The notes: a model not told the origin generated them from the sequence alone. Counted from the first letter of the stretch, positions 3,258 through 55,599 are shown. The stretch: DNA of 64,000 nucleotides from Firmicutes bacterium UBA5766 (GCA_002418775.1 DIEU01000058.1:24224-88223), one strand, 5' to 3'. Program-made: numbers and translations.

Positions 3258-3355
3258 TTAAACCTTCTCCTTACATAAATTGTATCTCAATCAACTTACA
3301 TCAGGGAAATTTATATATTTTTATGCCTCAGAGAAGGGGAAATATGCGCAAAAAA

Positions 3356-3375
3356 AGTGGCCTTCAAAGGCCACT
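3356..3375 (-). terminator. Rho-independent terminator after spoIID
   Basis: On the minus strand it reads AGTGGCCTTTGAAGGCCACT followed by TTTTTTTG, starting 4 nt after the spoIID stop. Confidence 0.7.
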
Positions 3376-3378
3376 GTG

Positions 3379-4737: not shown

Positions 4738-4752
4738 GGGGCTTTTAGCCCC
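4738..4752 (-). terminator. Probable terminator overlapping the yabO stop codon
   Basis: GGGGC-TTTTA-GCCCC hairpin. On the minus strand it is followed by TCTTTTATTACCTTTTCATTACCTTTT. Confidence 0.45.
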
Positions 4753-5030: not shown

Positions 5031-5077
5031 AATATCACCAAAAAAAAAAATGAAATTGCTTCCAAAGATGCCTAAAT

Positions 5078-5350
5078 TCAGGAAATTACTTCTCTTAACG
5101 CTTTTCCAGCCTTAAACACAGGCACACGGGTAGCGGCGATGTCGATTTCCTGCCCCGTCTGGGGATTGCGGCCCTTACGGGCAGCACGTTCTCTGATCTC
5201 AAATGTACCAAACCCTACCAACTGAACCCTGTCACCCCTTACCAGAGCTTCTTCGACAGTTTCAATCAGGGCTGAAACCGCCCTCTCCGCATCTTTTTTA
5301 GTAAGATCCGATTTTTCGGCTACCTGTGCAATTAGTTCCGCCTTGTTCAT
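5078..5350 (-). CDS. hup: DNA-binding protein HU
   Basis: [25 protein letters not shown]...[24 protein letters not shown]...[12 protein letters not shown] prefer the ATG at 5350 (RBS GAGGGGGG 6 nt upstream) over the track start at 5365. Confidence 0.9.
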
Positions 5351-5431
5351 AAATACCCCCCTCATTGGATTTTGGTATATTTTATTATTCGCTATAATAA
5401 TTACAAGTTCCTTCCGCCAAGAAAATATTTC

Positions 5432-6955: not shown

Positions 6956-7075
6956 TATTTTTTTCTCTCCTTTGCCCTCAAAAAGAAGGTTTTCGGTTAT
7001 CTATCTTTTAACGAATGGATATACAAGCCCCTAATGGTAAGTAATTATTTGGTCGCTTAGAATCCTATTAAAAAA

Positions 7076-7090
7076 GTGGCCTCCGGCCAC
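7076..7090 (-). terminator. Terminator after spoVT (bidirectional-looking)
   Basis: GTGGCC-TCC-GGCCAC hairpin flanked by an A-run on one side and a T-run on the other. The minus strand reads AAAGGTGGCCGGAGGCCACTTTTTT. Confidence 0.6.
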
Positions 7091-7098
7091 CTTTCTTT

Positions 7099-7659
7099 TT
7101 ATTGCTCCATTTGTTTGGCTAAAAACCCGGCTGCCGTTTCGGCCAGTTTCAGCTCCAGCTCACCCATTCTTTTTTCCGGTTCCTTTGAAGCCAGAATTAC
7201 AGCCCCGATAGGATCCCCGCCACAAATAATCGGCGCGATTACTTCTGAAGAATACTTGCATTCACCATTATCTATAATCATACATTCTTTACAAAACGGA
7301 TCCTCCCCGGGATTGTTAATCACCACTGTTCTGCGCTCTTCCATAGCCTTTTCAAGAGCAGGGCCAATCGGCTTATTAAGATATTCTTTCTTAGGAGCGC
7401 CGGCGGCGGCAATTATCGTATCCCGGTCAGCAATACAGGCGATATGCCCTAAAGCTTCATAAAGCGAATCGGCATATTCTTTGGCAAAGTCCCCTAATTC
7501 CCCAATAGGTGAATATTTTTTTAGGATCACTTCACCTTCTCTGTCAACAAAAATCTCCAAAGGATCGCCCTCACGGATACGTAAGGTTCTGCGGATCTCT
7601 TTCGGGATTACCACTCGACCCAAATCATCAATACGACGGACAATACCAGTTGCTTTCAC
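7099..7659 (-). CDS. spoVT: Stage V sporulation protein T (AbrB-family regulator)
   Basis: MKATGIVRRIDDLGRVVIPKEIRRTLRIREGDPLEIF is the AbrB swapped-hairpin N-domain. It is followed by a GAF-like C-domain and sits next to mfd as in Bacillus. Confidence 0.9.
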   Translation of the reverse strand: MKATGIVRRIDDLGRVVIPKEIRRTLRIREGDPLEIFVDREGEVILKKYSPIGELGDFAKEYADSLYEALGHIACIADRDTIIAAAGAPKKEYLNKPIGPALEKAMEERRTVVINNPGEDPFCKECMIIDNGECKYSSEVIAPIICGGDPIGAVILASKEPEKRMGELELKLAETAAGFLAKQMEQ

Positions 7660-7880
7660 GGATCACCCTCCCTCCTTGTTTTTTAAAACTGAGCAATAGA
7701 TCCTTTATTGATAGTATATAACAAGGGAAAGATGGTTATTCATTTTTTACCAATACCTACGAAATAATTTTCAGGTTTCGGAAAAATCCAATGTTATTCG
7801 CTTTTAAGCAACTTCTATCCATATTCTAAATTATCCCTTTAGGTCAGGCAAGCTTTTATTTAGCAGGCTTCTTTTAAGGT

Positions 7881-10800
7881 TTACAAAAGGCGGCGCAGAA
7901 AGTCCTCAATAAAAGCCAGGTAACTGACAGGGTCCAAAGGAGAAATCCTCGTTTTCAACCTGATTTCAAATCCGTCGGAGTTGCTGAATTTGACCTGATT
8001 TTGATAATGGCGGACAATATCGACCAGTTTTTCACCGCTTAAGGAGTGCTGGCCGTGAAACTGCATCCGGTAGCCGCCTGCATGTCCGGTAAGGTTTTTT
8101 ACCCCAACCTGACTGGCCAGAGCTTTGGACCTCGCGATCATTAAAAGGTTGCGCACCGGCTCCGGCTGATCCCCGTAACGGTCAACCAGTTCTTCCTCCA
8201 GGTCCAGCGCCTCATCCTCCCTGCGGAAGGAGGCCAGACGGCGGTATAGATCAATTTTTTGATCGGGGTCAGGAACATAGCTGCCCGGAATATAAGCCTC
8301 AACAGGCATTTCTACGGAGGTGTCAACCGGACGAACGACAGTTTCACCTTTGGCTTCCAGGACAGCCTCTTCCAGCAAACGGCAGTAAAGTTCAAATCCG
8401 ACTGCAGCGATATGGCCGTGCTGTTCAGGCCCAAGCAAATTTCCTGCGCCGCGGATTTCCAAATCCTTCATGGCTATTTTATAACCGGAACCAAACTCTG
8501 TAAACTCACGAATCGCCGCCAGCCTTTTTTCCGCCACTTCGGAAATAATCCGGTTCCTGGGAAAAGTAAAGTAAGCATAGGCCAGTTTGTTTGACCTGCC
8601 CACTCTCCCGCGAAGCTGGTATAACTGGGCAAGACCGAGATTTTGCGCATCCTTGACAATCAGTGTATTTACATTCGATATATCCATCCCGTTTTCAATA
8701 ATCGTTGTACAGACTAAAACATCATATTCGTAATTAACGAAATCAAACATAACCTGCTCCAGTTCATCTTCACGCATCTGACCGTGGGCAACGGTGATCC
8801 TTGCCTCGGGAACAAGCCCCTGCAGCCAACAGGCGACGCTGTCAAGGTCGACAATCCTGTTGTGGACAAAATAAACCTGGCCCCGGCGTCCAATTTCCCT
8901 GCGGATTGCCTCCCTGATCAGCACGGCGTCTTCTTCAAGGACATAGGTCTGAACAGGAAAACGGTTCTCGGGCGGGGTCTGAATCAGACTTGTGTCACGC
9001 ACGCCAACCATCGACATATGCAGGGTGCGGGGAATTGGAGTAGCTGTCAGGGTAAGCACATCAACATTTTCCTTTATTTTCTTGAGCCTTTCTTTATGAG
9101 CAACCCCAAAACGCTGCTCTTCATCAACTACAACCAGGCCCAAATCTTTGAAAACAATGTCTTCCTGAACGAGGCGGTGAGTGCCGATGACTATATCCAC
9201 CTTACCGGAGCTTAAATCGGAAATTACCTGCCTTTGTTCCTGGGCGGAACGAAACCTGCTGAGCATTTCAACTGAAACCGGAAAACCGTTGAAACGATCC
9301 GTAAAGGTATTGTAGTGCTGCTGGGCAAGAATAGTAGTAGGGACCAGTACGGCAACCTGCTTTCCCTCCGTGACAGCCTTGAAGGCGGCCCTTAAAGCAA
9401 CCTCTGTTTTACCGTAGCCGACATCACCGCATAGCAATCTGTCCATCGGCCTTACTTTTTCCATATCAGCTTTAACTTCCTCAACGGTCCTCAGCTGATC
9501 GGGGGTCTCTTCATAAGGAAAAGAAGCCTCAAATTCGCGCTGCCAAACAGTGTCAGGATTAAAAGCATACCCGGGCAGTTTTTGGCGGGCGGCGTATAAA
9601 GCCAGCAGTTCCCCCGCCATTTCACGAACAGCTTCTTTTACCCTGCCCTTGACACGAGACCACTCGCTCCCACCCAAACGTGACAACCGGGGAATCTCCG
9701 CTTCCGCGCCAAGGTATTTTTGGACGAGGCCTACCTGATCCGTCGGCACATACAGCCTGTCTTCCCCAGCGTACTGAACAAGCAGGTACTCCTTTTGAAT
9801 ACTCTCTATTTCCAGGGAGACTATTCCCTGGTAACGGCCGATTCCATGATTTTGATGAACCACAAAATCGCCGATCTTTAAATCGGCAAACGATTCCAGG
9901 TGTTTTGAGCGCCGTGGCCGCTCCCTTTGATTTTTCACCGGGCGGCTGAAAATTTCTTTTTCCGTAATCACCACCAGGTTACAGGAAATAAACTCAAATC
10001 CCTCTTTTAAAGCGCCTGTTGTTAGAACAACCTGTCCGGACTTTAATTCCTGATTCAGGTCTTCTGTTGTAAAGGGGTTAATTCCGGCGTCAATTAAGGA
10101 TTCCTGCAGATGGAGGGCGCGTTTTTTGCCTCCAATTACCAGGACAATTAAGTAGTTCATTTTAATAAAATGTTTTATTTCCTCAAAAAGAGTTTCCAAA
10201 TGCCCGTGAAAAACCCTTTTGCTCCTTGCAGTAAAAGACACAATGTTTTGGAAAATCACGTCCTGTGATTGCCTTTGCAGCAAAAACAGGCAGATAATCC
10301 GGAAACGGCTTAAAGCCTCCTCAATATAGCGCCAGTCAACGTAACCGCCGGACTGCATGGAAAGAACCTTTCCGTTCATCATCAGTTCCGTATAGATCTG
10401 TTCCCGTTCCTTGCCGATACTTTCAACAATTTCTTTTATTCTTACCGGATCATCCACGAAGACTGGACAGTCTGCGGGCAAATAATCAAACAGAGTTACA
10501 GGCCGGGGGTAAAAATAGGGCAGCAACTGCTCCCATCCCGGTGAATAAAATCCCTCCTGCAGTTGCAGGATAATTGCTTCAGCAAACTCAACGAGGTTAT
10601 CGCCCGCTTCACTGGAACCGGCCCGCTTAGGTTTGTTCAACTGGTTCTGATAATCAGCTTCTATCCTTTTTAACGCCGCTGCCCTGATTTCCTTATTGGA
10701 TACCAATTCCCTGGCGGTAAAGAAGGTTATTTCCTGAACGTTCTCTTCAGACCTCTGAGATTCCTCATCGAAAAACCTGATTGAATCCACTTCTTCGTCA

Positions 10801-15511: not shown

Positions 15512-15558
15512 CTACCCTGAAAATTAACTTGCTTTAAGGAGGTCAACTGCCTACGTTT
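15512..15558 (-). repeat. Copy 1 of a 47-nt intergenic element (21-nt perfect core AAACGTAGGCAGTTGACCTCC)
   Basis: The minus strand reads AAACGTAGGCAGTTGACCTCCTTAAAGCAAGTTAATTTTCAGGGTAG. The 21-nt core is identical to 55553-55573, and I count 39/47 matches overall. Confidence 0.9.
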
Positions 15559-42023: not shown

Positions 42024-45000
42024 TTACAGCCTGTATGGTCCCGCTCCAAAGAAGTATAAAAATCTTTCTTTGACGGGCAGCATCAAAACAGATTGGGCAG
42101 CCCTGGCATACATTTCAATTTGAATACGGTAGCGCGCCGCCAACTCTTTCATTCTTTCCCAATCACCGGGTCTAATATAATCTGTTTTATAATCAATAAC
42201 CACAAGAGCCCTCTCTTCCTCTAAAAGACAGTCAATGATACCCTGAACTACAACTGTCTGCTCAACAAAAGCCGGGGATGCAGCCAGGCTTCTTCCAGAC
42301 TGGGAATCACCTTCAACAGAGCAGGAATATATTTCATGGGCAGGAACAGCGATAAGAAAAGGGGTTTCCCGGTATATTTTATTTGCCGAAAGCACTCTTT
42401 CGCCAAGCGGTGATTCGAAGAAAGCCAGAAGATGGTCCGGATTTACAACATCAGCCTGGCCTTGTGTGAGGATTTCCCGTTTCTGCAAATCGGCGATTTG
42501 ATCACAGATGCTTTCTCTTGTTAACTGTCCGTCCATGTTTAGATGCCGCATAACCAGGTGTAAGGCGCTTCCCTTCTCCGCGCCGGTCAAGATGCTTGTT
42601 TTTTGTAAAAAATTCGGCCGCCTGGCGCCCTGACTGTGAGATACTTTCTCCTCCGGGGAAACCAGCCGCGAATTGTCCTCGTCACTGTACAATGAATATT
42701 CCCTTAAATCTGTTACAGTTAATTTTGCCGGTTTGACCGAGACGCAGTTTAAAGGATAACGCCAGCCGAGCAGATGTTCTATTTTCTCTTCGTCTCCGCT
42801 TTCCCCGTCAAGGAGTTCGAGTTTCCGCACCTTTTCAAGTATCCCGGCGGACTGTGAAGCCGGTTCCTCCTCTGCAACCGGTACTTTATAATCATCACCG
42901 CAGATTTTTATTTCCCAGCGGGAAAAATCATCAAAAGTATTCAAATTCAGGTTAAGACCGGCGGTTTGACGAAGAGATACCGCATCACGGCGCCTGATCA
43001 GGGCGGCGCCCAGCAGGTCAAGAAAAGACCTGGCGGAAATCAAATACGGTTCAAAGGGCTGCTTTTCCCTGACATCTCCGGCATTGGACCATTTCATAGC
43101 TTCTTTCCGGAGATCGGAGACACGGCCGATTAAAATAAGCTTTTCACGTGCCCGTGTCATAGCAACATATAGAATCCGCAGTTCCTCCGCTATGGTTTCC
43201 ATTTTGAGGGCAGCCTTCAAAGCCAGTTTCGGCAGAGTAGGGCAGCTGTACCTGCCGGTCACATTAACGAGCTGCGGGCCGATGCCAAGCTTTTTATGAA
43301 GAAGGACATTCCTGTTCAAATCCTGGAAATTAAACGATCTGTCCAGGCCTGCTATAAACACTACGGGAAACTCCAGACCTTTGCTCTTATGGATGCTCAT
43401 TATTCTGACCACGTCTTCGTTTTCCCCAAGCGCTCTTGCGGAACCGAGGTCGCGGTTGTTCTGTTGAAGGCGCTCAATATATTTAAGAAAACGGTATAAT
43501 CCCCGAAAAACAGTTCCTTCATACTGACAGGCCCTGTCATAAAGAGCACGCAGGTTAGCCTGGCGCTGGTCTCCTCCGGGCAGTCCGCCGGCGTAATCGT
43601 AATAACCGGTCTTACGGTATATATCGTGAATCAGGTCCGGCAAACGGCATTGTCGCGACATGGTACGCCACCGTTTCAGCATAGCCAAAAAAGCAACCAG
43701 CCTGCCGGTCAATTCATCGGAAGGCATCCCGGCGGCGGCCAGCACTGCGTCGTAGAAATCGCCTTCTTTCCGGCAAAGGCGTATTTTAGCCATTCCTTCA
43801 ACCCCGATTCCGACGAGGGGGGACCTTAAGACACCGGCTAAAGGTATATCCTGCCTTGGGTTATCTATAACAGAAAGCAGGGAAATGATTGTCCTTACTT
43901 CAGATGCCTGGAAATAACCTGCGGCAGACTCGGCGTAAGCCGGAATACCCGCCGCACTGAATTCCTCAAGGAATATTCCTGCTGTCTGTACGGTACTCCG
44001 CATTAAAACAGCCATATCCCTGTATGATAAACTTTTGCCCTCCCGCCTCGCTTCAGCGATCATTTCCTTGATCATACCGGCAACATACCTTGCTTCAACC
44101 CACCTTCCTTCAATTACCTCAAAAGAATCCCAAACGGTGTCTTCCTGTAATTCGCCGCCACCGCTTTCCCCGCTTTCCTCCAATACATCTTCGTCAGCGG
44201 GCGGTTCAGCGCTACGCAGGCCGGAATTCAGGAGGTGAAACTCGATGGCGTCGTTTGAAAAGGACGGTTTCAGCTTTTCGGACGGACGGGCTGCGCCAAA
44301 TTTGAGCGGGCTTCTGCTGTAATCAATTTCGCCGGCGCCCGGCGTCATCATCAGCGCAAAAATAAAGTTTACGCCGTCAATTATGTTTTTCGTGCTCCGC
44401 ATGTTGTTCGTCAGGCAAAGGGCTATCCCCGGATAACCGCAGTTTTTCGACTGATCAGCCGGACTTTTTAAAGGTATAAACAAGTTTTGCCGGGCCTGAA
44501 AAAGTCCGGGCTCGGCCAATCTGAACCTGTAGATGCTCTGTTTTACATCGCCGACCATAAACAGATTCGATCCTTTGGCGCTCTGACGGGAAACCAGGTT
44601 TAGAATAGCATCCTGGACCTCATTAATATCCTGGTACTCGTCTACCAGCACATGGTCAAAACGCCCCTGCAGCTTAAGGGCAACTTCCGACGGAACCAGA
44701 TCATCCGGCTCATTCCCCGGAACTCTTAAAATTTGGAGCGCGTATTGCTCCAAATCGCTGAAATCAACAACACCCTGAGCCTTTTTAATCTGCCGGTACA
44801 TTTCATCGAAATCCAGAACCAGTTCAACCAGTTCGTTAACCAGAGGAGCGACAGTTTCCAGTTCGGAAAGATATTCACCGGGTTCCCGCGAGAAAAACTC
44901 CTCAGCCAGACTTTTAAGATTCCTTTTAGCCCTCTCCCGCAATACTTTAACCTGTTTCTTCAGTTCCTCGCCGGCATCCTTAGCGGCGCGGCCGAAAGGT

Positions 45001-45854
45001 AAAAATTTAATCTCCTGAAAAGCTTTGTGCAGTTCTGTCCAGGAAAGACTGCAGCAGCGGATAAGCTTATTAATATTGACCAAATCATCCTGCAAGGCGC
45101 CTAAATATCCGCCGGGACCATCAGGGTTCAGGCATAATTCAGCAGCGTTCGCCGTAAGTTGGAGGATTGTTTTAAGCCGGCAGGACAGATATTCTTTTAA
45201 AACGCTTATCCAGGGAAGGTCTTCAAAATCCATGTCCGCAGAAGGATAAAAGCTTTTTAAGGCTGTTTTAAGCCAGTGTTGCGGGTCGGGCGTGCTCCGT
45301 GCAAAATCATACAGGCGTAAAACCAATTCCTGAAGTTCACTGTCATCACGGGAACCACCGTAGCAGTCAACCAAACTTGTGAATGTCGAATTGTCCATGC
45401 TGTCATAGCGCAGTTCAAACAACTCTTCGCAGACTGCCGTCCTGAGCAGGGCGGCTTCGTCCTCCCCGAGTACGCGTATCGCAGGATCAAGCCCTATTTT
45501 AAAAAAGTTTTGTCTGATCAGGTCAAGACAAAAAGAATGCAATGTGCCAATCGAAGACTTGTTGATCAGCTGCAATTGACGCCTCAGACGCAGGGAAGAA
45601 GGTTTTCTGTCAAGCTCGCCGGCCAGCGCCTGGCTTATTCTGCCGCGCATCTCGGCAGCGGCGGCGTTTGTAAATGTAACGACAAGCAGACGGTCCAAAT
45701 CAACCGGATTCTCCTGATTGGTAATCAGATTGATAATCCGTCCGACTAAGACCGAAGTCTTGCCTGTCCCTGCCGAGGCTGAAACCAGGACATTGCAGCC
45801 GGTTGTATTTATGGCGAGTTTTTGTTCCTCAGTCCAGTTAATGCCTGCCGACAA
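42024..45854 (-). CDS. addA: ATP-dependent helicase/nuclease subunit A (AddA)
   Basis: WTEEQKLAINTTGCNVLVSASAGTGKTSVL, VDEYQDIN, and a C-terminal RecB-type nuclease segment (GIIDCLLEE...VIDYKTD). TTG start with RBS AAAGGGGA. Confidence 0.95.
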   Translation of the reverse strand: MSAGINWTEEQKLAINTTGCNVLVSASAGTGKTSVLVGRIINLITNQENPVDLDRLLVVTFTNAAAAEMRGRISQALAGELDRKPSSLRLRRQLQLINKSSIGTLHSFCLDLIRQNFFKIGLDPAIRVLGEDEAALLRTAVCEELFELRYDSMDNSTFTSLVDCYGGSRDDSELQELVLRLYDFARSTPDPQHWLKTALKSFYPSADMDFEDLPWISVLKEYLSCRLKTILQLTANAAELCLNPDGPGGYLGALQDDLVNINKLIRCCSLSWTELHKAFQEIKFLPFGRAAKDAGEELKKQVKVLRERAKRNLKSLAEEFFSREPGEYLSELETVAPLVNELVELVLDFDEMYRQIKKAQGVVDFSDLEQYALQILRVPGNEPDDLVPSEVALKLQGRFDHVLVDEYQDINEVQDAILNLVSRQSAKGSNLFMVGDVKQSIYRFRLAEPGLFQARQNLFIPLKSPADQSKNCGYPGIALCLTNNMRSTKNIIDGVNFIFALMMTPGAGEIDYSRSPLKFGAARPSEKLKPSFSNDAIEFHLLNSGLRSAEPPADEDVLEESGESGGGELQEDTVWDSFEVIEGRWVEARYVAGMIKEMIAEARREGKSLSYRDMAVLMRSTVQTAGIFLEEFSAAGIPAYAESAAGYFQASEVRTIISLLSVIDNPRQDIPLAGVLRSPLVGIGVEGMAKIRLCRKEGDFYDAVLAAAGMPSDELTGRLVAFLAMLKRWRTMSRQCRLPDLIHDIYRKTGYYDYAGGLPGGDQRQANLRALYDRACQYEGTVFRGLYRFLKYIERLQQNNRDLGSARALGENEDVVRIMSIHKSKGLEFPVVFIAGLDRSFNFQDLNRNVLLHKKLGIGPQLVNVTGRYSCPTLPKLALKAALKMETIAEELRILYVAMTRAREKLILIGRVSDLRKEAMKWSNAGDVREKQPFEPYLISARSFLDLLGAALIRRRDAVSLRQTAGLNLNLNTFDDFSRWEIKICGDDYKVPVAEEEPASQSAGILEKVRKLELLDGESGDEEKIEHLLGWRYPLNCVSVKPAKLTVTDLREYSLYSDEDNSRLVSPEEKVSHSQGARRPNFLQKTSILTGAEKGSALHLVMRHLNMDGQLTRESICDQIADLQKREILTQGQADVVNPDHLLAFFESPLGERVLSANKIYRETPFLIAVPAHEIYSCSVEGDSQSGRSLAASPAFVEQTVVVQGIIDCLLEEERALVVIDYKTDYIRPGDWERMKELAARYRIQIEMYARAAQSVLMLPVKERFLYFFGAGPYRL

Positions 45855-45889
45855 ACGGCATATCCCCTTTTTATAACTACTTTTTACAA

Positions 45890-46869
45890 CTAATTGACGA
45901 TACCGGTTACAAAAGGCGCCAGTTCCGCATCGCCGGCAAGCTCCTGAAGCAGTTTCTGCTCTGCGGTATTCAGTTTCTCTCTACTCTCTTTACTCTTCAG
46001 TTCACGAATGCGTTCCAACTTTTTATATTTGTTGTAATAATCTATGGTGTCCCGTAAAAAATCCAGCGCTGCCTTTCCGCTCTGGCCCTTGCCGTTAAGC
46101 TCGGCGATTAGCTTGGCGGCCTTCTGGTCGATTTCCATTAAAGGCTGGCCGTGATATTCCCGTTCAACTTCCAGCACAGCATAGCTGGCGCCTCCAAAAA
46201 CACTTTGATCGGGATTCAATACAGTCAGGTTGCTGTTTAGCGACAATCCTTCCCCGACCGGTTTGTTAAAGCAGACAAAATAACCGGGCTGCAGTAGCTT
46301 ATGGCCTTTTTCCGGTTCTACAACTTCCAGTGTCAAACGCTCGTCAATTATTCGATCGTGGTTGTTGATGTTTTCAACCAGTGTTAAAAGAGCGGAGGAC
46401 CCGAAAGAAACAGAAGCCGCATACGGCGCAAGGTGAGGGAAGGTTACGGCGACGCTTTTAGACACATTGCTGACCGCCTCGATTAAGCCAGGATCAATGC
46501 CGTCCATGTCATAAACCTGGATTCTAAGGATTAACATATTTTTTTCCACATTAAAATCCCGGATCGTCAAAACAACATCGTTGAAGAAATCTCCCTGCCA
46601 GCCCTTCTCAACATTTTGCTGTAAAAAGTGAAGGCGTTGAACAGGCGGCTCATTTCCAAACTGCGATGTAGTCACTATAGCGACGTCGTTTTTATCCCAG
46701 GGCAGCCAATCATATTTTTCCAGGATCATCACGCCGCGTACCCGCACAGTCAGCGGCTGGGCGTTCTCAAAAACAGAAGAATCTTTAAAAACCTGGTCAA
46801 GACGGTCTGACAAGACCACCGACTCACCAATCTGGGAAGGAGCGCACATCCATCTAACATCCGACATCA
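45890..46869 (-). CDS. Uncharacterised 325-aa protein (beta-rich N-terminal ~240 aa, helical K/E-rich C-terminal ~80 aa)
   Basis: The ORF is open to 46960, but ATG 46869 has the RBS AAGGAAAGGAAG and avoids overlap with the ARH gene. I recognise no motif. GC is about 50%, like the host. It lies 26 nt after the ARH stop and 35 nt before the addA start. Confidence 0.6.
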
Positions 46870-46895
46870 AAGATCTTCCTTTCCTTTTTTTATTT

Positions 46896-47875
46896 TTAAC
46901 TAGCGCAGCTTTGGCTGTCAGACAGTAAAAGCCAAAGTCCGGCGGCCAATTCCTCAACATAGCCCCTGCCCTTTTGCCCTTCTTCCAGCTTATCCAGCCA
47001 TCGCCCGGGGATTCCCTTCCTGCCGTGATAGGCGCCGCTAATCGCTCCCGTCATGGCCCCGATTGTATCGGTATCACCGCCGAGGCTGACTGCTTTGACA
47101 ACTGCTTTTTCAAAGCTGCCGTAGTTCTCCAAAAATATGTATATGGAAGTACAGACCGATTGAGAAGCTTTTACTCCGTTGCCCAGTTCCCGGACAATTC
47201 TCTCAACAGCTGGTTCAATTTCCAGCAATTTTTCCACACAATCAAGTTTCTCCCTGTATTCCCCGGCTTCAGGAGGCAACGAACTTTTCAGGCTGCGCAA
47301 GAAACCTTTTTTGTCCAGGGGATACTGGCTGCCGGCGGTCAGGGCAAGGGCGATGGCGGATGCCTGAAGCGCCGCTCCTTCCACAACTTGAGGGTGGGCA
47401 TGTGTCAGGCAGGCAGATCCGGCGGCGCACTTCTTTAATTCATCCGGACGATCTACATAAAGACAGGCTACCGGGGCAACCCGCATTGCTGCGCCATTGC
47501 CGTAAGACCCGCCCGGGAATACCTTTGTACAGCCTGTTCCCAGGGTGTTCCACTTTTAATCAATTGCAGAACCCGTGTTGTCCCGGGACCATATCCGCGT
47601 TCATGATTAAAATTCCTGCAGAATGTAAAAGCCATATGCTGGGCGTTAAATGCTCCGCATTCCAATAAAGACTCGGCAATCCCGATCATCATTTCCGTAT
47701 CGTCCGTATAGCTGCCGGCTCTGAGGCGTCCGGGCAAAATCTCCGTTATTTCTCCGTATCTTTCCGAGATTTCCCGGGAAGACCAGCCTTCAACCGGCAT
47801 GCCAAGCGCGTCGCCTGTGAAAGTACCCAAAATAGCGCCCGAAATTTTATCAAGTGTTAAAACACCGGGAAGCAT
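46896..47875 (-). pseudogene. ADP-ribosylglycohydrolase (ARH/DraG family) disrupted by a 1-nt frameshift
   Basis: Track ORFs 47468..47875 (GDALGMPVEG, SYTDDTEMMIG) and 46896..47486 (AMRVAPVA..., GGDTDTIGAMTGAISGAYHG) are the two halves of one ARH fold. The conserved GSYGNGAAMRVAP block is readable only after a -1 shift near 47508-47517. Confidence 0.8.
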
Positions 47876-47976
47876 CCCGCAAGCCCCCCTTTAGCTTAAT
47901 ATTATGCATATTATCTAAATAATATTGAAATAAATGGAATTAAAAAAAGAATAACTTTTATTTTGAAATGCAATTA

Positions 47977-49263
47977 TTATTCGACCAAAGAAAGAATCCA
48001 ACTTATCCATGCACTTATTGTTTGGGACCGCCTATTATAAGTACTTTCAGCATTCATATTATAAAGAAAACTGTTCTTCATAATTTTAACAATATCTTCT
48101 TTCTTAGGTGGTTCTCTCTTTTCAAAATATAAAGATAAAACCCTGTAAAAAACTTTATGTTGCAATATTAATTTTACCAATGATAGATATTTGTTCTTAT
48201 AGGAAAAACTCATTATTCTTCTTCCGCTTTCAGTTAACGAGTATATAATTTCTTCTGTTTCGTAATTATGTCTTTTGTAAATTAAATGCAGGTATATCCC
48301 TGCATTTGTATAATAATCGGTTTGTCTAACATCAAAATCATAATTCTGTGTTATATATTCCTTGCTAAGATCTGTTTCTAAAAGGAGTCCGAGTAAATCT
48401 ATTACTCTAGAAAAATTATCCGCTTGAGGAAAGGGAATAGTTTCTTCACTAACAATTTTTATTCTATTATATATACCATAAATATCATCGAGTGTTATGC
48501 TTTCATACCCTATAATGAAATTATTTTGTGATATCAAACTTATTGAATTGTATTTTATAGGTTCTTCAAAATTATAAGTGAAGAAGGAAAAAATATCATT
48601 TGAAAAAGTAAGAAGTATGGGAATAACTTTTTTCTTTAATTTACCATTCCATAATCTATAAGGAAAGTAAAGTTGTCTAATAATAAAGTCATCAACTGCC
48701 CCAATCTTTGCTTCTATTATAGAAAAATAATTCTCTGTTTCAAAAGCCGCATCGATCTCAAGTTGAGAATTAGTGACAGCAATTTGTTTAAATTTATTAT
48801 CATAAGTATTTATTAGAAAGTCAAAATGGCCGGATGACATTCTCCCAGATACAGTTAATACTGCTTCTTCTTGTAGTATTTCGCTAATCATACCTGTTAT
48901 ATGGGCACAATGTAATACTACATTTTCCGAATAAAGATTTTTATAATCTATTGATTCTATAATAAAAGGAAAGTTAACATAGGATATCTTAGAAAACTTA
49001 TTATATTCAACTTCATTATATGCTTTAAACTTTCCTATAATATATTTTGAACGTGAAATTGGCAAAATAGTAAGGTTATTCTTTTTAAAAATCGATGGCA
49101 AATTCTTTTGATGATCATATTTAGCCATAAGCCTTGGTTCACGGACGCTCTTAATTGTTCTGGTTCCAATCTCTACATAACCATGTTTATCTACCTGAGG
49201 GAATAACTTGTATTTTTCAAACAACTCTTCCCATGCTTTATCATTAACTGTCTTTAGCGTCAT
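47977..49263 (-). CDS. Putative type II restriction endonuclease (PD-(D/E)XK)
   Basis: 428 aa. It overlaps the upstream methyltransferase gene by 20 nt. The candidate catalytic motif is EIDAAFETENYFSIIEAKIG (D...ExK). It is very AT-rich, and I recognise no specific REase family. Confidence 0.55.
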   Translation of the reverse strand: MTLKTVNDKAWEELFEKYKLFPQVDKHGYVEIGTRTIKSVREPRLMAKYDHQKNLPSIFKKNNLTILPISRSKYIIGKFKAYNEVEYNKFSKISYVNFPFIIESIDYKNLYSENVVLHCAHITGMISEILQEEAVLTVSGRMSSGHFDFLINTYDNKFKQIAVTNSQLEIDAAFETENYFSIIEAKIGAVDDFIIRQLYFPYRLWNGKLKKKVIPILLTFSNDIFSFFTYNFEEPIKYNSISLISQNNFIIGYESITLDDIYGIYNRIKIVSEETIPFPQADNFSRVIDLLGLLLETDLSKEYITQNYDFDVRQTDYYTNAGIYLHLIYKRHNYETEEIIYSLTESGRRIMSFSYKNKYLSLVKLILQHKVFYRVLSLYFEKREPPKKEDIVKIMKNSFLYNMNAESTYNRRSQTISAWISWILSLVE

Positions 49264-50089
49264 AATTCATCACCAATATTTCCTCAATATAGCCCCTCTT
49301 AGTAGCATCAGAATTAATTGCCCTAGAAGCTGTAACAATTACGTTCTTGTAGTCTTTATATAGGTCTTTTATAAAATCTGTTCCGGAATTACTAAGTAAA
49401 ACCTTACACCCCTTAGTATTTAATTTATCAAAAACTTTTTTTAGCCTTACCTGATCTTCAGCATCAAACCCATTTAGATCATATCCTGTAAAGGAAGATG
49501 TATCTGAAATAGGATCATAAGGAGGATCTAAATATACAAAATCGCCTTTTTTAGCTTGCTCCAGTACGGTCTCGAAATCATCATTCAATATGGAAATATC
49601 AATCCTATTTAGAAAATCACTCACAGCTTTTAGGAGGATATTATCTTCAAAATTAGGTTTTTTATAATTCCCAAATGGTACATTAAAATAGCCTTGGCTA
49701 TTTACTCTAAATAAACCATTGTAACAAGTCTTATTTAAAAAGATTATTCTTGATGCTTTCTCAACAGGTGACAAATTATCATATTCTTCAGTTCTATCTA
49801 AATCTCTAATCTTATAATAATACTCCTTTTCATTAATATGCTTACTGAGATCTATAATTAGGTCATCAACATTAAGCTTAATCACTTTATATACATTAAT
49901 TAGCTCCTGATTAATATCATTAATAATAGCTTTTCTTGGTTGAATGTCGAAAAATACAGCACCCCCTCCTAAAAAAGGTTCAAAGTATATCTTAATCTTT
50001 TTAGGGATGTATTTTCTAATTTCTGATAGAAGCTGACGTTTTCCGCCAGCCCATTTTAAAAATGGTCTAATAAGTTGGTTCTTTTTCAT
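49244..50089 (-). CDS. Dam/D12-class N6-adenine DNA methyltransferase
   Basis: RPFLKWAGGKRQLL, EPFLGGGAVFF (SAM binding) and YLDPPY (catalytic DPPY). The preferred start is ATG 50089 (RBS GAGGA) rather than TTG 50104. Confidence 0.9.
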   Translation of the reverse strand: MKKNQLIRPFLKWAGGKRQLLSEIRKYIPKKIKIYFEPFLGGGAVFFDIQPRKAIINDINQELINVYKVIKLNVDDLIIDLSKHINEKEYYYKIRDLDRTEEYDNLSPVEKASRIIFLNKTCYNGLFRVNSQGYFNVPFGNYKKPNFEDNILLKAVSDFLNRIDISILNDDFETVLEQAKKGDFVYLDPPYDPISDTSSFTGYDLNGFDAEDQVRLKKVFDKLNTKGCKVLLSNSGTDFIKDLYKDYKNVIVTASRAINSDATKRGYIEEILVMNYDAKDS

Positions 50090-50215
50090 TAAAAATATCC
50101 TCAAAACTATTTTTTGTAACAGTTATTTCGTCACCTTAAAAGAATATTCCTGCTTATATTGTTTTTGCCCCCCGCCCATTTAATCAGGGGCGCAGGTTCT
50201 GAGAACTGAACCATT

Positions 50216-53200
50216 TTAGCTTCCTTTACTTAACATTTTCCAGATATATTCTCTGGCAAGAGCCGGGATCCGCCGGTATTCATTTTCAGGCAATAAAGGA
50301 TCAAACGAACAAACCGGCTTATATTCGCAGTAAGCGCAGGCTGTCTGGCTTTTATAACGGTAAGGTTTTATTTCCGCCGAACCGCCCAGGATTCTTTCCC
50401 CGGCAGCGGCAGCCAATCTTCTTAGATAATCGCGCAGGTCAGCCAGTTGTTTCATAGTAACCAGACTTGGGCTGCTATAAAGGCCTCCGTCTTTTTTCAA
50501 GCCGGCCGGGACGAGATTGGACAAACCGTTTACCTGTTTATCCATTAACCTGATCACATCGGGTTCGGCCAGAACCAAACCTCTCATCTTCAAGTTTTTT
50601 TCCGTCAAAGCCTCAATTTCTCCCGGCTGGGGCGGCCTGGAAACGCCTGTTACGGGATCTGCTACGTTAAAGTAAAAAACTCCGGCAGGCAAAGCCTCAA
50701 CGCCAATCAGGCGGCACGCAAAGTTGACCGCCACATCAAGGTAAATCAAAAGTTGAAGCTGAAGCCCGTAATATATTTTGGCCAGGTTGAGTTCTGCAGG
50801 GCCTGATTTGTAATCGACCACCCGCAGGTAATGGCAGGTTCCCCATTCGGCGGCGTCTATCCGGTCAATCCGGCCGTTAATTTCCATTTTCACCCCCCCG
50901 GCAACGGGCAGTTCAAAGGCAGGGATCTGTCCAGGACGGGAAAAGGATACCTCCGCGGCGACAGGTTGAAAAGCGCTCCGGCTGGCGTGCTTGGAAAGGG
51001 AATAAACCGCCCTTTCTACAGTTCTTTGAAGACGGGTGGTCAGATAGCGGTAACGGGGTGAACTTAAAAGGATTTCATCCCTTAATGAGGGAGCAACCCC
51101 GGTAACTATTTCGCCTGCAATCTGATTGCACTGCTCAATGTTTAAATCCTTTAAGTCCTGTTTGCCTTGAAGTGATTTTTCAACGAAAATTTTAAGGCAG
51201 GTGTGGTAAAACTCTCCCAAATCAGGCCTTTCCAGTTTAAAAACAGCCCTTTCCCTCAATTTCAACCCGTAGGTTAAATAATGGGCAAAAGGGCAGGAGT
51301 AGTAGCGTTCCAGCCGCGATACGCTTGTCCTTAGAGGACTGCCGAACAGAGAAAGGCTTAATTCTTTTTTCAGCGGACCCTCGTTGTTATTATAATACAG
51401 CCCTGAAAACATGTTTATGAGCCTGTCCCTGTACTGAGGCTGTTTGACAAACCAGTTGTAGACCGAACACCAAAGAGGCGCAAGCACGCCCGAAGACTTG
51501 CCTTCTCTTAACTGTACCGTCAGGTAAGCCAGGGTTCGCTCCGCCCCGGCTATATAATGAAGATCCCCAGCTTCGGTCCCCGGCGGGGAAACGGGCAAAA
51601 AAACTTCCGCAAGGCCAGGGAACGTTTTTTTCAACCGCTGAATAACCGGTGAAGGAGTCAGGGCATACCCTTCCTGATCAGACAAAGCATAGCTGACCCA
51701 TAAGAATTCGCTGCTTCTTGTCAGGGCAATGTAAACAAGGAACTGTTCATTGAAAAGCAGCCGTCGCCCGGAAGGGCTTAAAGTTACCCCGGCCGCTTCG
51801 ATATTCTCCCTTTCAAAATCAGTAAATAAACCTTTTTGTTCAGGGCGTGCGGGTAAAAGGCCGTCATTAACGCCCAGAACAAAACAGGCTTTGACATTTG
51901 GATTTCGCGAACGTTCCAGGGAAGCAATCAGGATCTGATCCAGCCCGGGAGGAATCATCCCCAAACGGATTCCTTCCAGCCCCGTCTGAATTATCTTCAG
52001 ATAATCCCCGGTTGTAACACGTTCATCACCAAGAGTTTCTGCAAGCTGATCAAAAAGTTCTATTATTGCATCCCAAATTTGGGCGTGCTCCTGTGAAGCG
52101 TCAGGATTGCCGTCTTCCCGGGCCTTTTCGGAAAGCATTTTCAATTGTTCAAACACATTGAGGCTGGTAATTAATTCAAATAGAGCCGCCGTTATTTCCC
52201 TGACCGCAGCGGATTGCGCAACGGCAGCCTGAAAATCGGCAATTTCTTTTACGGCCGCCCTCCTGATCCGGTTTATTTCACCAAGTTTGTTTATTTCCAC
52301 AGAACCGGGATCTTCTTCCCTTTCTTCCCTTTCTTTCGTATACCTGCGTTCGTACTGCCAGTCTTCGGAATCTGTCCATCGTGAACCCTTTATTCCATGG
52401 GCAAGCACATAATTCTCCAGGATATCGATATCATCCTGGCTGACAGATGTAAGGCCGGTCTTTAGATAACCGAATACAGAATCGTAGCTCCATCCGCTTA
52501 TGATAACCTCCAGCGCAGCTTTAATTAAAGCTGCCAAAGGATGATGCCCTATTTCCCGTTTGACATCGATAAAGTAAGGAATTCCATAGTCATTAAAAAC
52601 AATGTCTATTAAAGGCCGGTATATTTCCACTTTGCGAAGAATAACTGAAATATCTTTCCAACGGTAACCTTTCTCCCGGCAAAGATGGATTATCTCACGG
52701 GCAGCGCTCTCAACTTCAGCATGGCGGTTTGCCGCAGCAATCAGTTTTATCCCCGCCGGCTGATCCTTGTACGGCCCGCCCCTCTGTGCCGGGATATCTT
52801 TTTCAAGATGCGCCAGGCAGGGAGTATCCTTATAACGGGGCGGCAAATCATTATCCAGGCAAAGAGATCTTTCCACAGCAATCCCATACTGGGAGGCCAT
52901 CGCTTTTATTTTTTCAAGGACCTCAAATGTGGGATGAAAAACATCGCTTTCATCCAGAGCGTCCGCTGATGTCCGGCTGTCCAGGCAGAGTGCGACGCTG
53001 ACTCTTTTAGCGGCTTTAAGCAGTTCTCCGATTACTCTGTATTCCTGGGAATTAAAACCTGCGAAACAATCAATCCAAACCTCGCTTCCTTGCATAAAAC
53101 GGGAAAAAGCTATTTTTTCAGCAAGCAAATCCAGATAACAGTCAGGATCAAGATACCGGGCGCCCAAATAACTGTCATAATTGGAGAGCAGCAGGGCAAA

Positions 53201-53677
53201 ATCTTTTAACTTATCGGACAGAATGCTTTCTTTTTCAGCAAAACGGGCTGTTAAATCAGATAAATGCGATCCCTTTATACTATACTGTTTTGCTTCACAG
53301 ACAGCGTTCGAAAGGTTTTGGATAAACCCGGGATAATTAGTCAGCTGTTGAAAAACTTTCAATTCTTTACGCTTCTCAATCAACAGCCTGCGAAGAATCA
53401 TTTGTTTGCCAAGTTCACCAACATGTATACGGGATATCCCGCCTGTTTCACTTAGAATATGCCAGGCCAGGCGGCGGAAGCTGAGTACCTGAGCCCTGTA
53501 CGTGCCTTTTAAGCCGGCAAGCAGGGAAACCTCCATCTGGAAGGTGACCTGTTCCGGTACAAGAAACAGAAGGGGAAAAGGGTTACCGGGCTTTTTATTG
53601 ATCTGATCCTGTATCTCTTTCAAACAGGTATGTGTCTTGCCTGTTCCAGCCCGTCCCAAAATGAATCTCAGACTCAT
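50216..53677 (-). CDS. addB: ATP-dependent helicase/nuclease subunit B (AddB)
   Basis: LRFILGRAGTGKTHTCL, a C-terminal nuclease (VVDYKSG) and the Fe-S cysteines (CPFAHY ... CAYCEYKPVC). The preferred start is ATG 53677 (RBS GGTGG). The track start is GTG 53698. Confidence 0.95.
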   Translation of the reverse strand: MSLRFILGRAGTGKTHTCLKEIQDQINKKPGNPFPLLFLVPEQVTFQMEVSLLAGLKGTYRAQVLSFRRLAWHILSETGGISRIHVGELGKQMILRRLLIEKRKELKVFQQLTNYPGFIQNLSNAVCEAKQYSIKGSHLSDLTARFAEKESILSDKLKDFALLLSNYDSYLGARYLDPDCYLDLLAEKIAFSRFMQGSEVWIDCFAGFNSQEYRVIGELLKAAKRVSVALCLDSRTSADALDESDVFHPTFEVLEKIKAMASQYGIAVERSLCLDNDLPPRYKDTPCLAHLEKDIPAQRGGPYKDQPAGIKLIAAANRHAEVESAAREIIHLCREKGYRWKDISVILRKVEIYRPLIDIVFNDYGIPYFIDVKREIGHHPLAALIKAALEVIISGWSYDSVFGYLKTGLTSVSQDDIDILENYVLAHGIKGSRWTDSEDWQYERRYTKEREEREEDPGSVEINKLGEINRIRRAAVKEIADFQAAVAQSAAVREITAALFELITSLNVFEQLKMLSEKAREDGNPDASQEHAQIWDAIIELFDQLAETLGDERVTTGDYLKIIQTGLEGIRLGMIPPGLDQILIASLERSRNPNVKACFVLGVNDGLLPARPEQKGLFTDFERENIEAAGVTLSPSGRRLLFNEQFLVYIALTRSSEFLWVSYALSDQEGYALTPSPVIQRLKKTFPGLAEVFLPVSPPGTEAGDLHYIAGAERTLAYLTVQLREGKSSGVLAPLWCSVYNWFVKQPQYRDRLINMFSGLYYNNNEGPLKKELSLSLFGSPLRTSVSRLERYYSCPFAHYLTYGLKLRERAVFKLERPDLGEFYHTCLKIFVEKSLQGKQDLKDLNIEQCNQIAGEIVTGVAPSLRDEILLSSPRYRYLTTRLQRTVERAVYSLSKHASRSAFQPVAAEVSFSRPGQIPAFELPVAGGVKMEINGRIDRIDAAEWGTCHYLRVVDYKSGPAELNLAKIYYGLQLQLLIYLDVAVNFACRLIGVEALPAGVFYFNVADPVTGVSRPPQPGEIEALTEKNLKMRGLVLAEPDVIRLMDKQVNGLSNLVPAGLKKDGGLYSSPSLVTMKQLADLRDYLRRLAAAAGERILGGSAEIKPYRYKSQTACAYCEYKPVCSFDPLLPENEYRRIPALAREYIWKMLSKGS

Positions 53678-53829
53678 ACTGTAAAACCACCTGAACACTT
53701 ATAAAGCTCTTCCCTGTTCCTGGAAAAGTCAAAACTAACTTGATTATACAGTAACAAAGTTTTATTGTTAAGAGATGAAACCGATTCTATAAAGACAAAT
53801 TGGCGCTTTCCTTGCGGGGGTGAATCGAG

Positions 53830-54420
53830 CTGGAAGATGATGATTTAGTAATCAGAAGCAGGTCAGGGGATCTAAGCGCCTTTGAAGAACTTGTTCACCG
53901 TTATGAAAATAAAGTACTCTCCTTAGCCTACCGGATGGTAGGAAATTGGGCCGACGCCAGCGATCTGGCGCAGGAAACATTTATCAGGACATATCACTCC
54001 CTGTCCGATTTTCAAGGAAAGTGCAGTTTTTCCACCTGGATTTATCATATTACAGTTAATATCTGCCGCGATGAGTTACGCAAAAAAAACAGGCGCCCGA
54101 AAATTTCTTTGGATGAAATTGCCGCTTCTTCAGGCGGACTGCCTTTTTCAGAAACAGGGACCGATTGCCCGGAGAACAAACTTGAACAGCTTGAGCTGCA
54201 GGAGGCTGTTCAGGAATGTTTAAACGCCCTCCCGGATGAATACAGGCTGGCGCTGATCATGCGGGAGATCCAGGGTTTATCATACGAGGAAATTGCAACT
54301 GCCCTGAAATGCTCCGTAGGAACTGTAAAATCCCGTCTGAGCCGTTCCAGAACAGCTTTTAAACAAAAAGCAGAGGTTATTATAGGAACATTTTCACTTC
54401 CCGGAACGTCAAAAGGGTAG
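53830..54420 (+). CDS. ECF (sigma-70 family group IV) sigma factor
   Basis: The track ORF starts at ATG 53935. The same frame is open from 53824 and encodes the conserved region-2 N-terminus (ELEDDDLVIRSRSGDLSAFEELVHRYENKVLSLAYRM). No ATG, GTG or TTG is available there. CTG 53830 lies 6 nt after GGGGGTGA, so the start I give is tentative. Confidence 0.8.
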   Translation: MEDDDLVIRSRSGDLSAFEELVHRYENKVLSLAYRMVGNWADASDLAQETFIRTYHSLSDFQGKCSFSTWIYHITVNICRDELRKKNRRPKISLDEIAASSGGLPFSETGTDCPENKLEQLELQEAVQECLNALPDEYRLALIMREIQGLSYEEIATALKCSVGTVKSRLSRSRTAFKQKAEVIIGTFSLPGTSKG

Positions 54421-54432
54421 GAGGAAACCATC

Positions 54433-55536
54433 ATGAAATGCTCGAAGGCAAAAAAACTATTTTCCGGCTATCTCGACAGCGAACTGAAACCCTCTCAAAA
54501 AGGTTTTCTGGAAAACCATTTATGCGCCTGCCCCGACTGCCGGTATGAATTAGCCAGACTGCGGGCTTCCATGGAATTGATCCATGGTTTGCCGGAAGTC
54601 GTCGCGCCGAAAGATTTCTGGGCCCAGGTCTCGGAAAAAATAGCGATTGAGGATAGTCCCAAAAAACAGAAGAAGACAGTTAAGTGGTTTTTCCCGGGAG
54701 AAAGGCTGCGCGCCGGAATTGCCCTGGCAGCGGTCCTAATCGTCGTTTTGGGGATTTCCTCTCTGATTTACAGTTCAACAATCGGGCAGGGTCCAGTTGA
54801 ATTGCTGAGCAAAAAAACAACTCCTGAAAAAAACGAAACATACAGGCTATCGCTGCCCTCTCAGCAAGTCCCTGAGAAAAGCGCCTCCACCGGCGCCGGG
54901 GAAGCTCATGCTTTGAAAACAGAAGGATCCCCTGAAAATAACGAACAGGCGCTGTTAGACAACTCGCCTGCCGAAGAAAACATCCAAGCCGGGAAAAGCG
55001 GTGGCGGTTCGGGCGGTTCCATTACGGCTCAGGAAATTCCCGCCCTTGGAAGCGCCGAAGCGCAGCGGCAAAAATGGATAATTACCAGAATCAGCTTGAA
55101 ACTAAAGACAGACAAAAAGGAAGAAACAATCACCAGGTTAAATACACTCGCCAGTGAACTGGGCGGCGAGCTGAGATTTGCGTCTTCCCAGGATAACAGC
55201 ACACAGATGGAGCTGACTGCCCCTGTTGACAAAACAGCCGGGGCACTGGCTAAAATTGAATCTTTGGGAGAAATTTCGGATAAAAAGCAGGAGGAACAGG
55301 ATATAACTGAAGAATACTTAATCTTACAGGAACAGGAACAGGAAGAAAAGCTCCGGCAGGAAAATGAACAATTAACAACGCCGAACAATTATTCCGGGGA
55401 CGCAAATGAAGGAAACAGCGCCACTCAGGAAGAATTAAAAGAGCTTCGGCTGGAACTTGACCAAACAAGCTTAAGCCTTGAGAAACTTATGGAGGAGATG
55501 AACTCGGTTCACTTCCTGATTAATATTATCAATTAA
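54433..55536 (+). CDS. Anti-sigma factor (zinc-binding ZAS type) with one TM and a long extracytoplasmic domain
   Basis: H-x3-C-x2-C motif (NHLCACPDC) in the first 40 aa, a TM segment at AGIALAAVLIVVLGISSLIY, and a position 12 nt after the ECF sigma stop. Confidence 0.75.
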   Translation: MKCSKAKKLFSGYLDSELKPSQKGFLENHLCACPDCRYELARLRASMELIHGLPEVVAPKDFWAQVSEKIAIEDSPKKQKKTVKWFFPGERLRAGIALAAVLIVVLGISSLIYSSTIGQGPVELLSKKTTPEKNETYRLSLPSQQVPEKSASTGAGEAHALKTEGSPENNEQALLDNSPAEENIQAGKSGGGSGGSITAQEIPALGSAEAQRQKWIITRISLKLKTDKKEETITRLNTLASELGGELRFASSQDNSTQMELTAPVDKTAGALAKIESLGEISDKKQEEQDITEEYLILQEQEQEEKLRQENEQLTTPNNYSGDANEGNSATQEELKELRLELDQTSLSLEKLMEEMNSVHFLINIIN

Positions 55537-55552: not shown

Positions 55553-55599
55553 AAACGTAGGCAGTTGACCTCCCTGATGCAAAATTGTTTTCAGAGTAG
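55553..55599 (+). repeat. Copy 2 of the 47-nt intergenic element (core AAACGTAGGCAGTTGACCTCC)
   Basis: AAACGTAGGCAGTTGACCTCCCTGATGCAAAATTGTTTTCAGAGTAG. See copy 1 at 15512-15558 on the opposite strand. Confidence 0.9.

Follow-up and report, generated by a model that had tools for sequence, protein, structure and literature searches.

Why the two genes of the AddAB enzyme, which are adjacent in the Firmicutes-type operon, should lie apart is the question raised by a 64,000-nucleotide stretch of DNA from Firmicutes bacterium UBA5766 (GCA_002418775.1 DIEU01000058.1:24224-88223). This whole stretch is called the window here, and positions are counted from its first letter. The organism is Desulfotomaculum-like and comes from hydrocarbon-degrading communities. 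In the window, addB (50216-53677, with an alternative GTG start at 53698) and addA (42024-45854, with a TTG start and AAGGGG ahead of it) are both on the minus strand and are separated by 4,361 bp. A preliminary description of this locus, made from the sequence alone, had reported the same strand, a split of 4.36 kb and four co-oriented genes in the gap, and the listing of open reading frames (ORFs) and the family scans agreed with it. AddB matched the Pfam families ADDB_N (2e-92) and PDDEXK_1 (1.5e-44), and AddA matched UvrD-helicase (1.3e-56), UvrD_C and PDDEXK_1 (2e-7). Both proteins have the domains that define AddAB, but the adjacency of the Firmicutes-type operon is absent from the window.

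We consider it likely that the addB-addA junction of the clade to which the window belongs is a slot inside the operon, in which co-oriented accessory genes are gained, exchanged and lost. The ancestor of the wider group carried overlapping addB and addA genes. In the ancestor of the clade, addB was followed by an orphan DpnM/Dam-like methylase gene translationally coupled to it, an ARH3-like ADP-ribosylglycohydrolase (ARH) gene, probably a gene for a C2-like protein of 325 amino acids (aa) and then addA. A mobile unit of low GC content, a methylase gene (M) followed by a restriction gene (R), later replaced the resident methylase gene from codon 18 to the stop codon and so produced the arrangement in the window, and other lineages deleted, lost or interrupted individual slot genes. 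The ARH gene and the 325-aa gene would be passengers without a demonstrated link to defence or to AddAB.

Slot contents among relatives

Relatives of the window were found by a genome scan with AddA and by contig look-ups, their slots were mapped by tblastn and blastn, and the loci were labelled with L-numbers. The preliminary description had proposed to look for empty sites in related genomes, and such sites exist. In Desulfotomaculum sp. 1211_IL3151 (L008; 45% AddA identity), addB and addA overlap by 17 nt without any cargo, and in two Clostridia (L009, L010) the two genes are adjacent, again without cargo. Compared with this wider group, the window therefore carries an insertion. From the overlap in L008 we infer that addB and addA were translationally coupled in the ancestral state.

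Members of the clade share 79-85% aa identity with the AddA of the window, and the AddB identity to L001, L005 and L006 is 83-86%. Among six clade members, five slot configurations were observed. The window and L001/L002 carry a methylase stub, M, R, ARH and the 325-aa gene. L005 carries an intact gene for a 272-aa Dam-like methylase of host-like GC content, followed by ARH and the 325-aa gene, and in L023 the intact 272-aa methylase gene of host-like GC content is accompanied by ARH only. In L007, ARH directly precedes addA and a dispersed repeat stands at the place of the 325-aa gene. In L006, a 109-bp piece from the 5′ end of the methylase gene runs directly into the final ~86 bp of ARH, and the 325-aa gene follows. 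An ancestral arrangement had been named in the preliminary description as a finding that would refute its interpretation. At the depth of this genus-level clade the older layer of slot genes is indeed ancestral; beyond that depth it is not.

Several side observations concern the repeats and a distant relative. MITE-like (miniature inverted-repeat transposable element-like) dispersed repeats of the clade were located at L001:6284-6523, at L007:1-267 and 1271-1435, and in the window at 15512-15556 and 55555-55599. The ~240-bp repeat that lies between stub and cassette in L001 has further copies in L007 (12313-12596) and in L023. A second repeat element flanks ARH on both sides in L007, fills the place of the 325-aa gene there and occurs as short pieces twice in the window. 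An Rfam scan of the L001 and L007 repeat elements gave no match. In Phycisphaerae bacterium SM23_30 (L012:1710-9220), addB (1710-5375) and addA (from 8894) are 3.5 kb apart, and the gap holds two genes on the opposite strand, one for a 413-aa membrane protein with Cys motifs (5520-6761) and one for a 486-aa protein (6840-8300) that has a twin-arginine signal and looks like a reductive dehalogenase. A split between addB and addA is therefore also found in a distant phylum, where the cargo is not defensive.

Replacement of the resident methylase gene

Two compositional layers had been proposed for the gap, and the GC profile showed them clearly: GC content is 27-31% at 47.9-50.2 kb and ~46-54% elsewhere, including ARH and the 325-aa gene. 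From this profile and from the breakpoints against L005 and L007, a low-GC cassette of 2,272 bp was delimited at 47892-50163 (minus strand; 28.5% GC versus ~47% in the flanks). Homology between the window and L001, L005 and L006 runs 52 bp past the addB stop codon and then ends. This short segment contains an ATG 1 nt after the addB stop codon, and the 17 codons that begin there (MVQFSEPAPLIKWAGGK; 50164-50214, minus strand) are the first 17 codons of the intact 272-aa methylase gene of L005 (7122-7940) and L023 (5382-6200). They represent the 5′ end of the ancestral orphan Dam-like methyltransferase gene of host-like GC content, and this stub was retained in the window, L001 and L006. The low-GC sequence starts right after the stub and ends ~20 bp before the ARH start, where the homology to L005 and L007 resumes. 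Both junctions are the same in L001/L002, whose cassette is 87.6% identical to that of the window at the DNA level, and L001 has the ~240-bp dispersed repeat in addition. Because a stub of the host-GC methylase gene directly precedes the cassette and homology to L005 and L007 resumes directly behind it, the alignments show that the cassette replaced the resident methylase gene from codon 18 to the stop codon and was not inserted beside older cargo. The preliminary description had counted at least two integrations. Two layers of different age were confirmed, and the second event appears as this replacement and not as a simple insertion. More than two events are visible in the slot overall, namely the deletion in L006, the loss of the 325-aa gene in L007 and L023, the MITE-like insertions in L001 and L007 and a frameshift of ARH in the window. 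In the slot itself there is neither a long target duplication nor a transposase or integrase. Homologous recombination at a shared KWAGGK motif was considered for the left junction and rejected, since the stub is followed by a complete methylase gene that still has the cassette's own upstream region in front of it.

The source of the window is evidently a metagenome-assembled genome, and the sharp changes in GC content at 47.9 and 50.2 kb could suggest a chimeric assembly of a metagenome bin, with the ARH frameshift as a sequencing error. The exact sequence of the restriction enzyme was found on 17 contigs, of which 8 were retrieved (ENA, JGI and Logan; different hydrocarbon and tailings metagenomes). 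These 8 independent assemblies differ in sample, assembler and database. Wherever they cover window positions 50300-45800, all of them match at 100% identity, including both junctions and the frameshift. Additionally, both junctions recur in a second species (L001/L002) at 87.6% identity, and the left junction keeps a recognisable stub of the replaced gene. The probability of an artefact is negligible. The misassembly at about 45.9 or 50.2 kb that the preliminary description had allowed for, as well as a sequencing error behind gap and frameshift, is ruled out by the 8 identical assemblies.

The cassette encodes a Dam-family (DpnM-like) N6-adenine DNA methyltransferase of 281 aa (49244-50089, minus strand; an alternative TTG start at 50104 would give 286 aa) and a type II restriction endonuclease of 428 aa (47977-49263, minus strand), whose gene overlaps the methylase gene by 20 nt. 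The methylase matched PF02086 (MethyltransfD12; 7e-72) and the PADLOC model MTase_II (2.4e-106), and it scored 314 bits with TIGR00571 (dam), above the cut-off of 114.85. The restriction enzyme matched PADLOC REase_II (PDLC03513) over residues 4-428 of 428 (1.2e-95) and carries DUF6996, DUF6997 and DUF7226. The features tested for a type II restriction-modification (R-M) system were all found: a methyltransferase domain, an adjacent restriction enzyme that matches a curated model and joint travel of the two across unrelated replicons. Homologues of the restriction enzyme number 2,488 at E<=1e-10, many of them named 'type II restriction enzyme'. They occur on Firmicutes and cyanobacterial plasmids, adjoining genes named 'DNA adenine methylase', and 31 viral contigs carry them as well. 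Of the 26 viral loci whose restriction enzyme is full-length, 25 have a Dam-family methylase gene 2-46 bp upstream. The pair is by these occurrences a mobile unit, seen on plasmids and phages, and it probably acts as an ordinary restriction defence or selfish module.

Two side observations belong to this family. Its members are often mis-named 'translation elongation factor' in NCBI and UniRef records, an error that has spread through Bacillaceae genomes and staphylococcal plasmids. In five IMG/VR viral contigs (L060-L064), an intact Dam-family methylase gene stands beside N-terminal fragments of the restriction gene or without any restriction gene, and these loci look like R-M units decaying into orphan phage methylases. 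A literature search found no paper that mentions DUF6997.

The preliminary description had called the 428-aa protein a PD-(D/E)XK endonuclease. The endonuclease part was borne out by the REase_II match, whereas the fold label follows from a motif and weak fold matches and carries no family assignment. The residues D171, E184 and K186 (D171...E184-x-K186) are invariant in 38 sequences. The AlphaFold2 (AF2) model has a pLDDT of 92.7; its best fold matches in the PDB are Cas4-family nucleases, and these are weak (Foldseek E 4e-3, TM 0.16-0.23). The C-terminus gave a weak fold match to winged-helix regulators. A Pfam scan of the protein gave no PDDEXK family match, and a sequence search against the PDB gave no match. 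Together, the motif and the weak matches make a PD-(D/E)XK fold no more than plausible.

The methylase of the cassette and the orphan methylase that it replaced belong to the same family. The L005 orphan has host-like GC content, is Dam-like, shares 49% identity with the low-GC methylase, is not accompanied by a restriction enzyme and scored 278 bits with TIGR00571 (cut-off 114.85). Among solved structures, both proteins match DpnM (2dpm) best (1e-81 for the window methylase, 2e-67 for the orphan), with E. coli Dam next. The equivalog model of E. coli Dam, NF008152, was not reached by either (202 bits for the window methylase and 191 bits for the L005 orphan versus a cut-off of 441). DpnM is GATC-specific. 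Because both methylases are DpnM-like, they probably share one specificity, of the GATC type. In that case the resident methylase would already have protected the chromosome when the restriction gene arrived, and the chromosome would stay protected when the cassette was swapped back for the orphan methylase. Such prior protection would remove the usual barriers to gain and loss of an R-M system, and it would explain why both alleles occur in ~97% identical genomes.

This alternation is seen directly in L001 and L005. The two are 96-97% identical at the DNA level in addB, the stub, ARH, the 325-aa gene, addA and gltX, and in a neighbour-joining tree of AddA they group with 100% bootstrap support and 4% aa divergence; the window groups with L007 (87%). 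Despite these nearly identical flanks, L001 carries the R-M cassette and L005 the intact methylase gene. No rise of L001-L005 divergence was observed next to the slot, and import of the cassette together with donor flanks was rejected for that reason. Between the window and L001, the rate of synonymous substitution (dS) is 0.49 for M, 0.48 for R, 0.50 for addB and 0.57 for addA. The ratio of nonsynonymous to synonymous rates (dN/dS) of all slot genes is 0.08-0.26, similar to that of addA and addB, so that the slot genes are under purifying selection. Since the dS of M and R equals that of addB and is near that of addA, and since dN/dS is low, both alleles are old and functional and have been exchanged or maintained across species. 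Genomes of the window type and the L001 type co-occur in the same samples.

Older slot genes, defence and AddAB

The ARH gene (46896-47875, minus strand) encodes an ARH3-like hydrolase and is frameshifted in the window. Its two ORFs (47468-47875 and 46896-47486) correspond to the two halves of PF03747 (ADP_ribosyl_GH), at profile positions 1-116 (6e-27) and 127-286 (1e-39). Alignment with L001, L005 and L007 placed a 1-nt deletion in an A-run at 47524-47526, where the window reads GTACAA-AGGT and the relatives read GTAAAAGAAGT or GTAAAAAAGGT. In L001, L005, L007 and L023 the reading frame is intact (324-328 aa). As the frameshift is fixed in the 8 assemblies, the gene of the window is by its sequence an inactivated pseudogene. 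The best match of the intact L001 orthologue among PDB sequences is ARH3 (1.7e-39), which in eukaryotes is a DNA-damage-response enzyme. The same orthologue stays below the equivalog cut-offs of DraG (TIGR02662; 123 versus 337 bits) and Tri1 (NF041672; 78 versus 490 bits). The family has more than 5,000 homologues. In Thermanaeromonas toyohensis and on a second contig, they are solo genes among housekeeping genes and not near addAB. A homologue with 65% identity at L025:6005-8966 stands beside a PHP-domain protein gene and the nadA-nadB-nadC operon of NAD biosynthesis, a context that hints at a housekeeping role of this subfamily in NAD or ADP-ribose metabolism.

The second older gene (45890-46867, minus strand) encodes the 325-aa protein from an ATG at 46867 that is preceded by a ribosome-binding site (RBS); the longest ORF (45890-46960) would give 356 aa. 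No match to this protein was obtained in Pfam, NCBIfam, PADLOC or PHROG. It has 98 close homologues across bacteria and archaea, all called 'hypothetical', and a cluster mate is annotated as Desulfotomaculum sp. 46_80. A profile search of 1.84 billion representatives yielded 256 clusters at 50% identity. Nearly all of them are single-domain proteins of ~320 aa, and no informative fusions were seen among the 256. Identity is ~50% between Firmicutes, Chloroflexi, myxobacteria, methanogens and haloarchaea, and seven residues (D61, Y119, D120, D122, P144, Q193 and Y278) are invariant. The AF2 model (pLDDT 79) shows an N-terminal C2-like beta-sandwich and a C-terminal helical part. The resemblance to C2 domains is one of fold (Foldseek E 3e-5 to 1e-3, TM ~0.5 relative to the C2 targets), as the protein does not match the Pfam C2 family. 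Over its full length, the model matches the fold of an uncharacterised protein of Hokovirus HKV1 (A0A1V0SF49; E 5.5e-13, TM 0.61). With a C2-like domain, a distribution over bacteria and archaea and a fold match in a giant virus, this family is the only real unknown of the slot. The dN/dS of the gene is 0.11-0.26. An obligate or toxin-antitoxin-like pairing of ARH and the 325-aa gene was considered and rejected, since the 325-aa gene occurs without ARH in L006, ARH occurs without the 325-aa gene in L007 and L023, and the distant homologues of either gene are solo.

These properties bear on the interpretation in the preliminary description, according to which the gap is a miniature defence island that arose by at least two integrations into addBA. 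Under this reading, all four genes would act against phages beside an AddAB enzyme that phages target. In its favour, M and R form a genuine defence module, the gap has two compositional layers, and ARH-family proteins do occur in phages (PHROG 6572, 6e-45). However, the PADLOC matches are confined to M and R: neither the ARH halves nor the intact L001 orthologue nor the 325-aa protein gave a match, so that the at least two clustered, recognised systems that make a defence island were not found. Elsewhere, the 325-aa gene (five unrelated contexts) and ARH (two contexts) are represented by solo homologues that stand among housekeeping genes and have no defence genes beside them. Moreover, the older layer has host-like GC content and holds an orphan methylase gene, which alone is not a defence system, and ARH is a pseudogene in the window. 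We therefore regard a defence island as unlikely, and the older layer is better described as a set of long-resident passenger genes.

A functional link to AddAB is another way to read the older layer. The host-GC trio of Dam-like methylase, ARH3-like hydrolase and C2-like protein would then not be passengers but an accessory module of AddAB, which might remove ADP-ribose from DNA ends, from proteins or from AddAB itself and so allow AddAB to process breaks, or might sense inhibition of AddAB or phage inhibitors. The genes are kept in the operon across lineages at a dS of ~0.5 with a dN/dS of 0.11-0.26, like addA and addB, the orphan methylase starts 1 nt after the addB stop codon, and the hydrolase resembles ARH3. 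On the other hand, each gene is dispensable somewhere: L006 does without the methylase and ARH, L007 and L023 do without the 325-aa gene, and ARH is frameshifted in the window. No association with addAB was observed in any other lineage examined, and a literature search found no paper that mentions both addAB and ADP-ribosylglycohydrolase. This possibility seems improbable to us, even more so than a defence island. If it were true, the trio would be a previously unrecognised accessory module and the R-M cassette a later hitch-hiker.

Expression of addA

The cargo of the window is oriented like addB and addA throughout and is tightly spaced: 1 nt between the addB stop codon and the stub, an overlap of 20 nt between M and R, 28 nt between ARH and the 325-aa gene and 35 nt between the 325-aa gene and addA. 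Upstream of addA, the sequence kept across slot variants comprises only ~17 bp before the start codon, i.e. the RBS. A scan of the intergenic regions of the slot found no convincing terminator. A consensus scan gave many promoter-like matches in the AT-rich cassette and a strong one upstream of addB at 53771-53743 (53743-53771, minus strand; sigma-70-like, TTAACA-17-TATAAT, 11/12), a consensus match that is not evidence of function and a candidate for the operon promoter. Next to this region, a pair of genes for proteins of 161 and 367 aa (53935-55536, plus strand) is divergent from addB. It is kept in L001, L002, L023, L026 and L027 and is annotated as an extracytoplasmic function (ECF) sigma factor and a zf-HC2/DUF4349 anti-sigma-like protein, so the addB promoter region is common to addB and this pair.

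The slot genes share one orientation, follow each other closely and evolve under purifying selection, which makes transcription running on from the addB promoter the likeliest way for addA to be expressed. The coupling of addB and addA suggested by L008, the restriction of conserved sequence upstream of addA to ~17 bp, the tight spacing and the absence of a convincing terminator likewise make read-through the simplest explanation. On these grounds, most expression of addA would come from transcripts that start at the addB promoter and cross the slot, and chance promoters in the AT-rich cassette may contribute. Both subunits are required for AddAB, so that only co-oriented and terminator-free insertions would survive in such a slot.

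Some points weigh against an operon-internal exchange slot as described here. That purifying selection has kept ARH and the 325-aa gene inside the operon for so long also fits a functional link to AddAB. Read-through to addA is deduced, with promoter and terminator scans that report consensus matches only, and the specificity of the methylases is taken from family resemblance. GATC is neither avoided nor enriched in the host (observed/expected 1.00), a value that does not discriminate the restriction specificity. Deep nodes of the AddA tree have bootstrap values of only 59-87%, and with so weak a tree the 325-aa gene may have been present in the ancestor and lost on two occasions, or may have been gained. 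The swap between L001 and L005 may have run in either direction and is compatible with interspecies recombination as well as with a long-lived polymorphism.

Comparison with known systems

An exchange slot of this kind has several consequences. The junction between two cistrons of an enzyme essential for repair can act as a gene-exchange slot for cargo that is co-oriented and compatible with read-through. The locus is also a clean natural case in which near-identical genomes carry either an R-M cassette or a same-family orphan methylase as alternating alleles, and this fits the idea that a resident methylase eases gain and loss of restriction systems. Desulfotomaculum-like populations that live together in hydrocarbon-degrading consortia are predicted from these alleles to differ in their methylomes and restriction barriers. 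In the literature searched, including the 15 top-ranked papers on addAB, defence islands and restriction-modification, neither a split addBA operon nor these cargo genes were reported, and no paper naming the organism was found.

R-M systems have reportedly been described by Kobayashi and colleagues in terms of 'mobile forms' and allelic substitution, with units that move as cassettes and replace resident genes or alleles. The unit of the window resembles such cassettes in its M-then-R order, foreign composition, occurrence on plasmids and phages, precise borders and presence or absence between near-identical genomes. It differs in that its target lies inside the addBA operon and in that it displaced an orphan methylase gene that was already resident and belongs to the same family. 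Similarly, the methylase shares with DpnII/MboI-type GATC systems its closest relative among solved structures, DpnM (2dpm, 1e-81), and a score above the TIGR00571 cut-off, whereas the restriction enzyme is outside the DpnII Pfam family, carries DUF6996/6997/7226 and has no solved relative by sequence. Work by Takahashi et al. from 2002 is said to have dealt with the protection that an orphan methylase gives against post-segregational killing by an R-M system with which it shares its specificity (dcm versus EcoRII). Here, too, a resident solitary methylase and the incoming methylase of a same-family R-M system are found, alternating at one locus. Unlike in the dcm/EcoRII case, the shared specificity is deduced from resemblance, and the two methylases are alternative alleles at one site and do not co-exist.

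Genes of a RecBCD-class enzyme are also split by an unrelated gene in the recC-ptrA-recB-recD arrangement of E. coli. There, ptrA is fixed in enterobacteria, whereas the addBA slot differs in content from one sister species to another and has a mobile R-M unit among its cargo. Integration hotspots and defence islands of E. coli that are flanked by core genes have a fixed site and differing accessory cargo (PMC10121019). The addBA slot likewise has a fixed position between conserved core genes and cargo that differs by genome. However, its flanks are the two cistrons of one enzyme's operon, its cargo is co-oriented and it holds one recognised defence system. The parts of the slot are individually ordinary, and the case is real and well documented. 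The addBA slot is a core-gene-flanked hotspot combined with R-M allelic replacement, placed inside a two-cistron operon and swapping with an orphan methylase of the same family.

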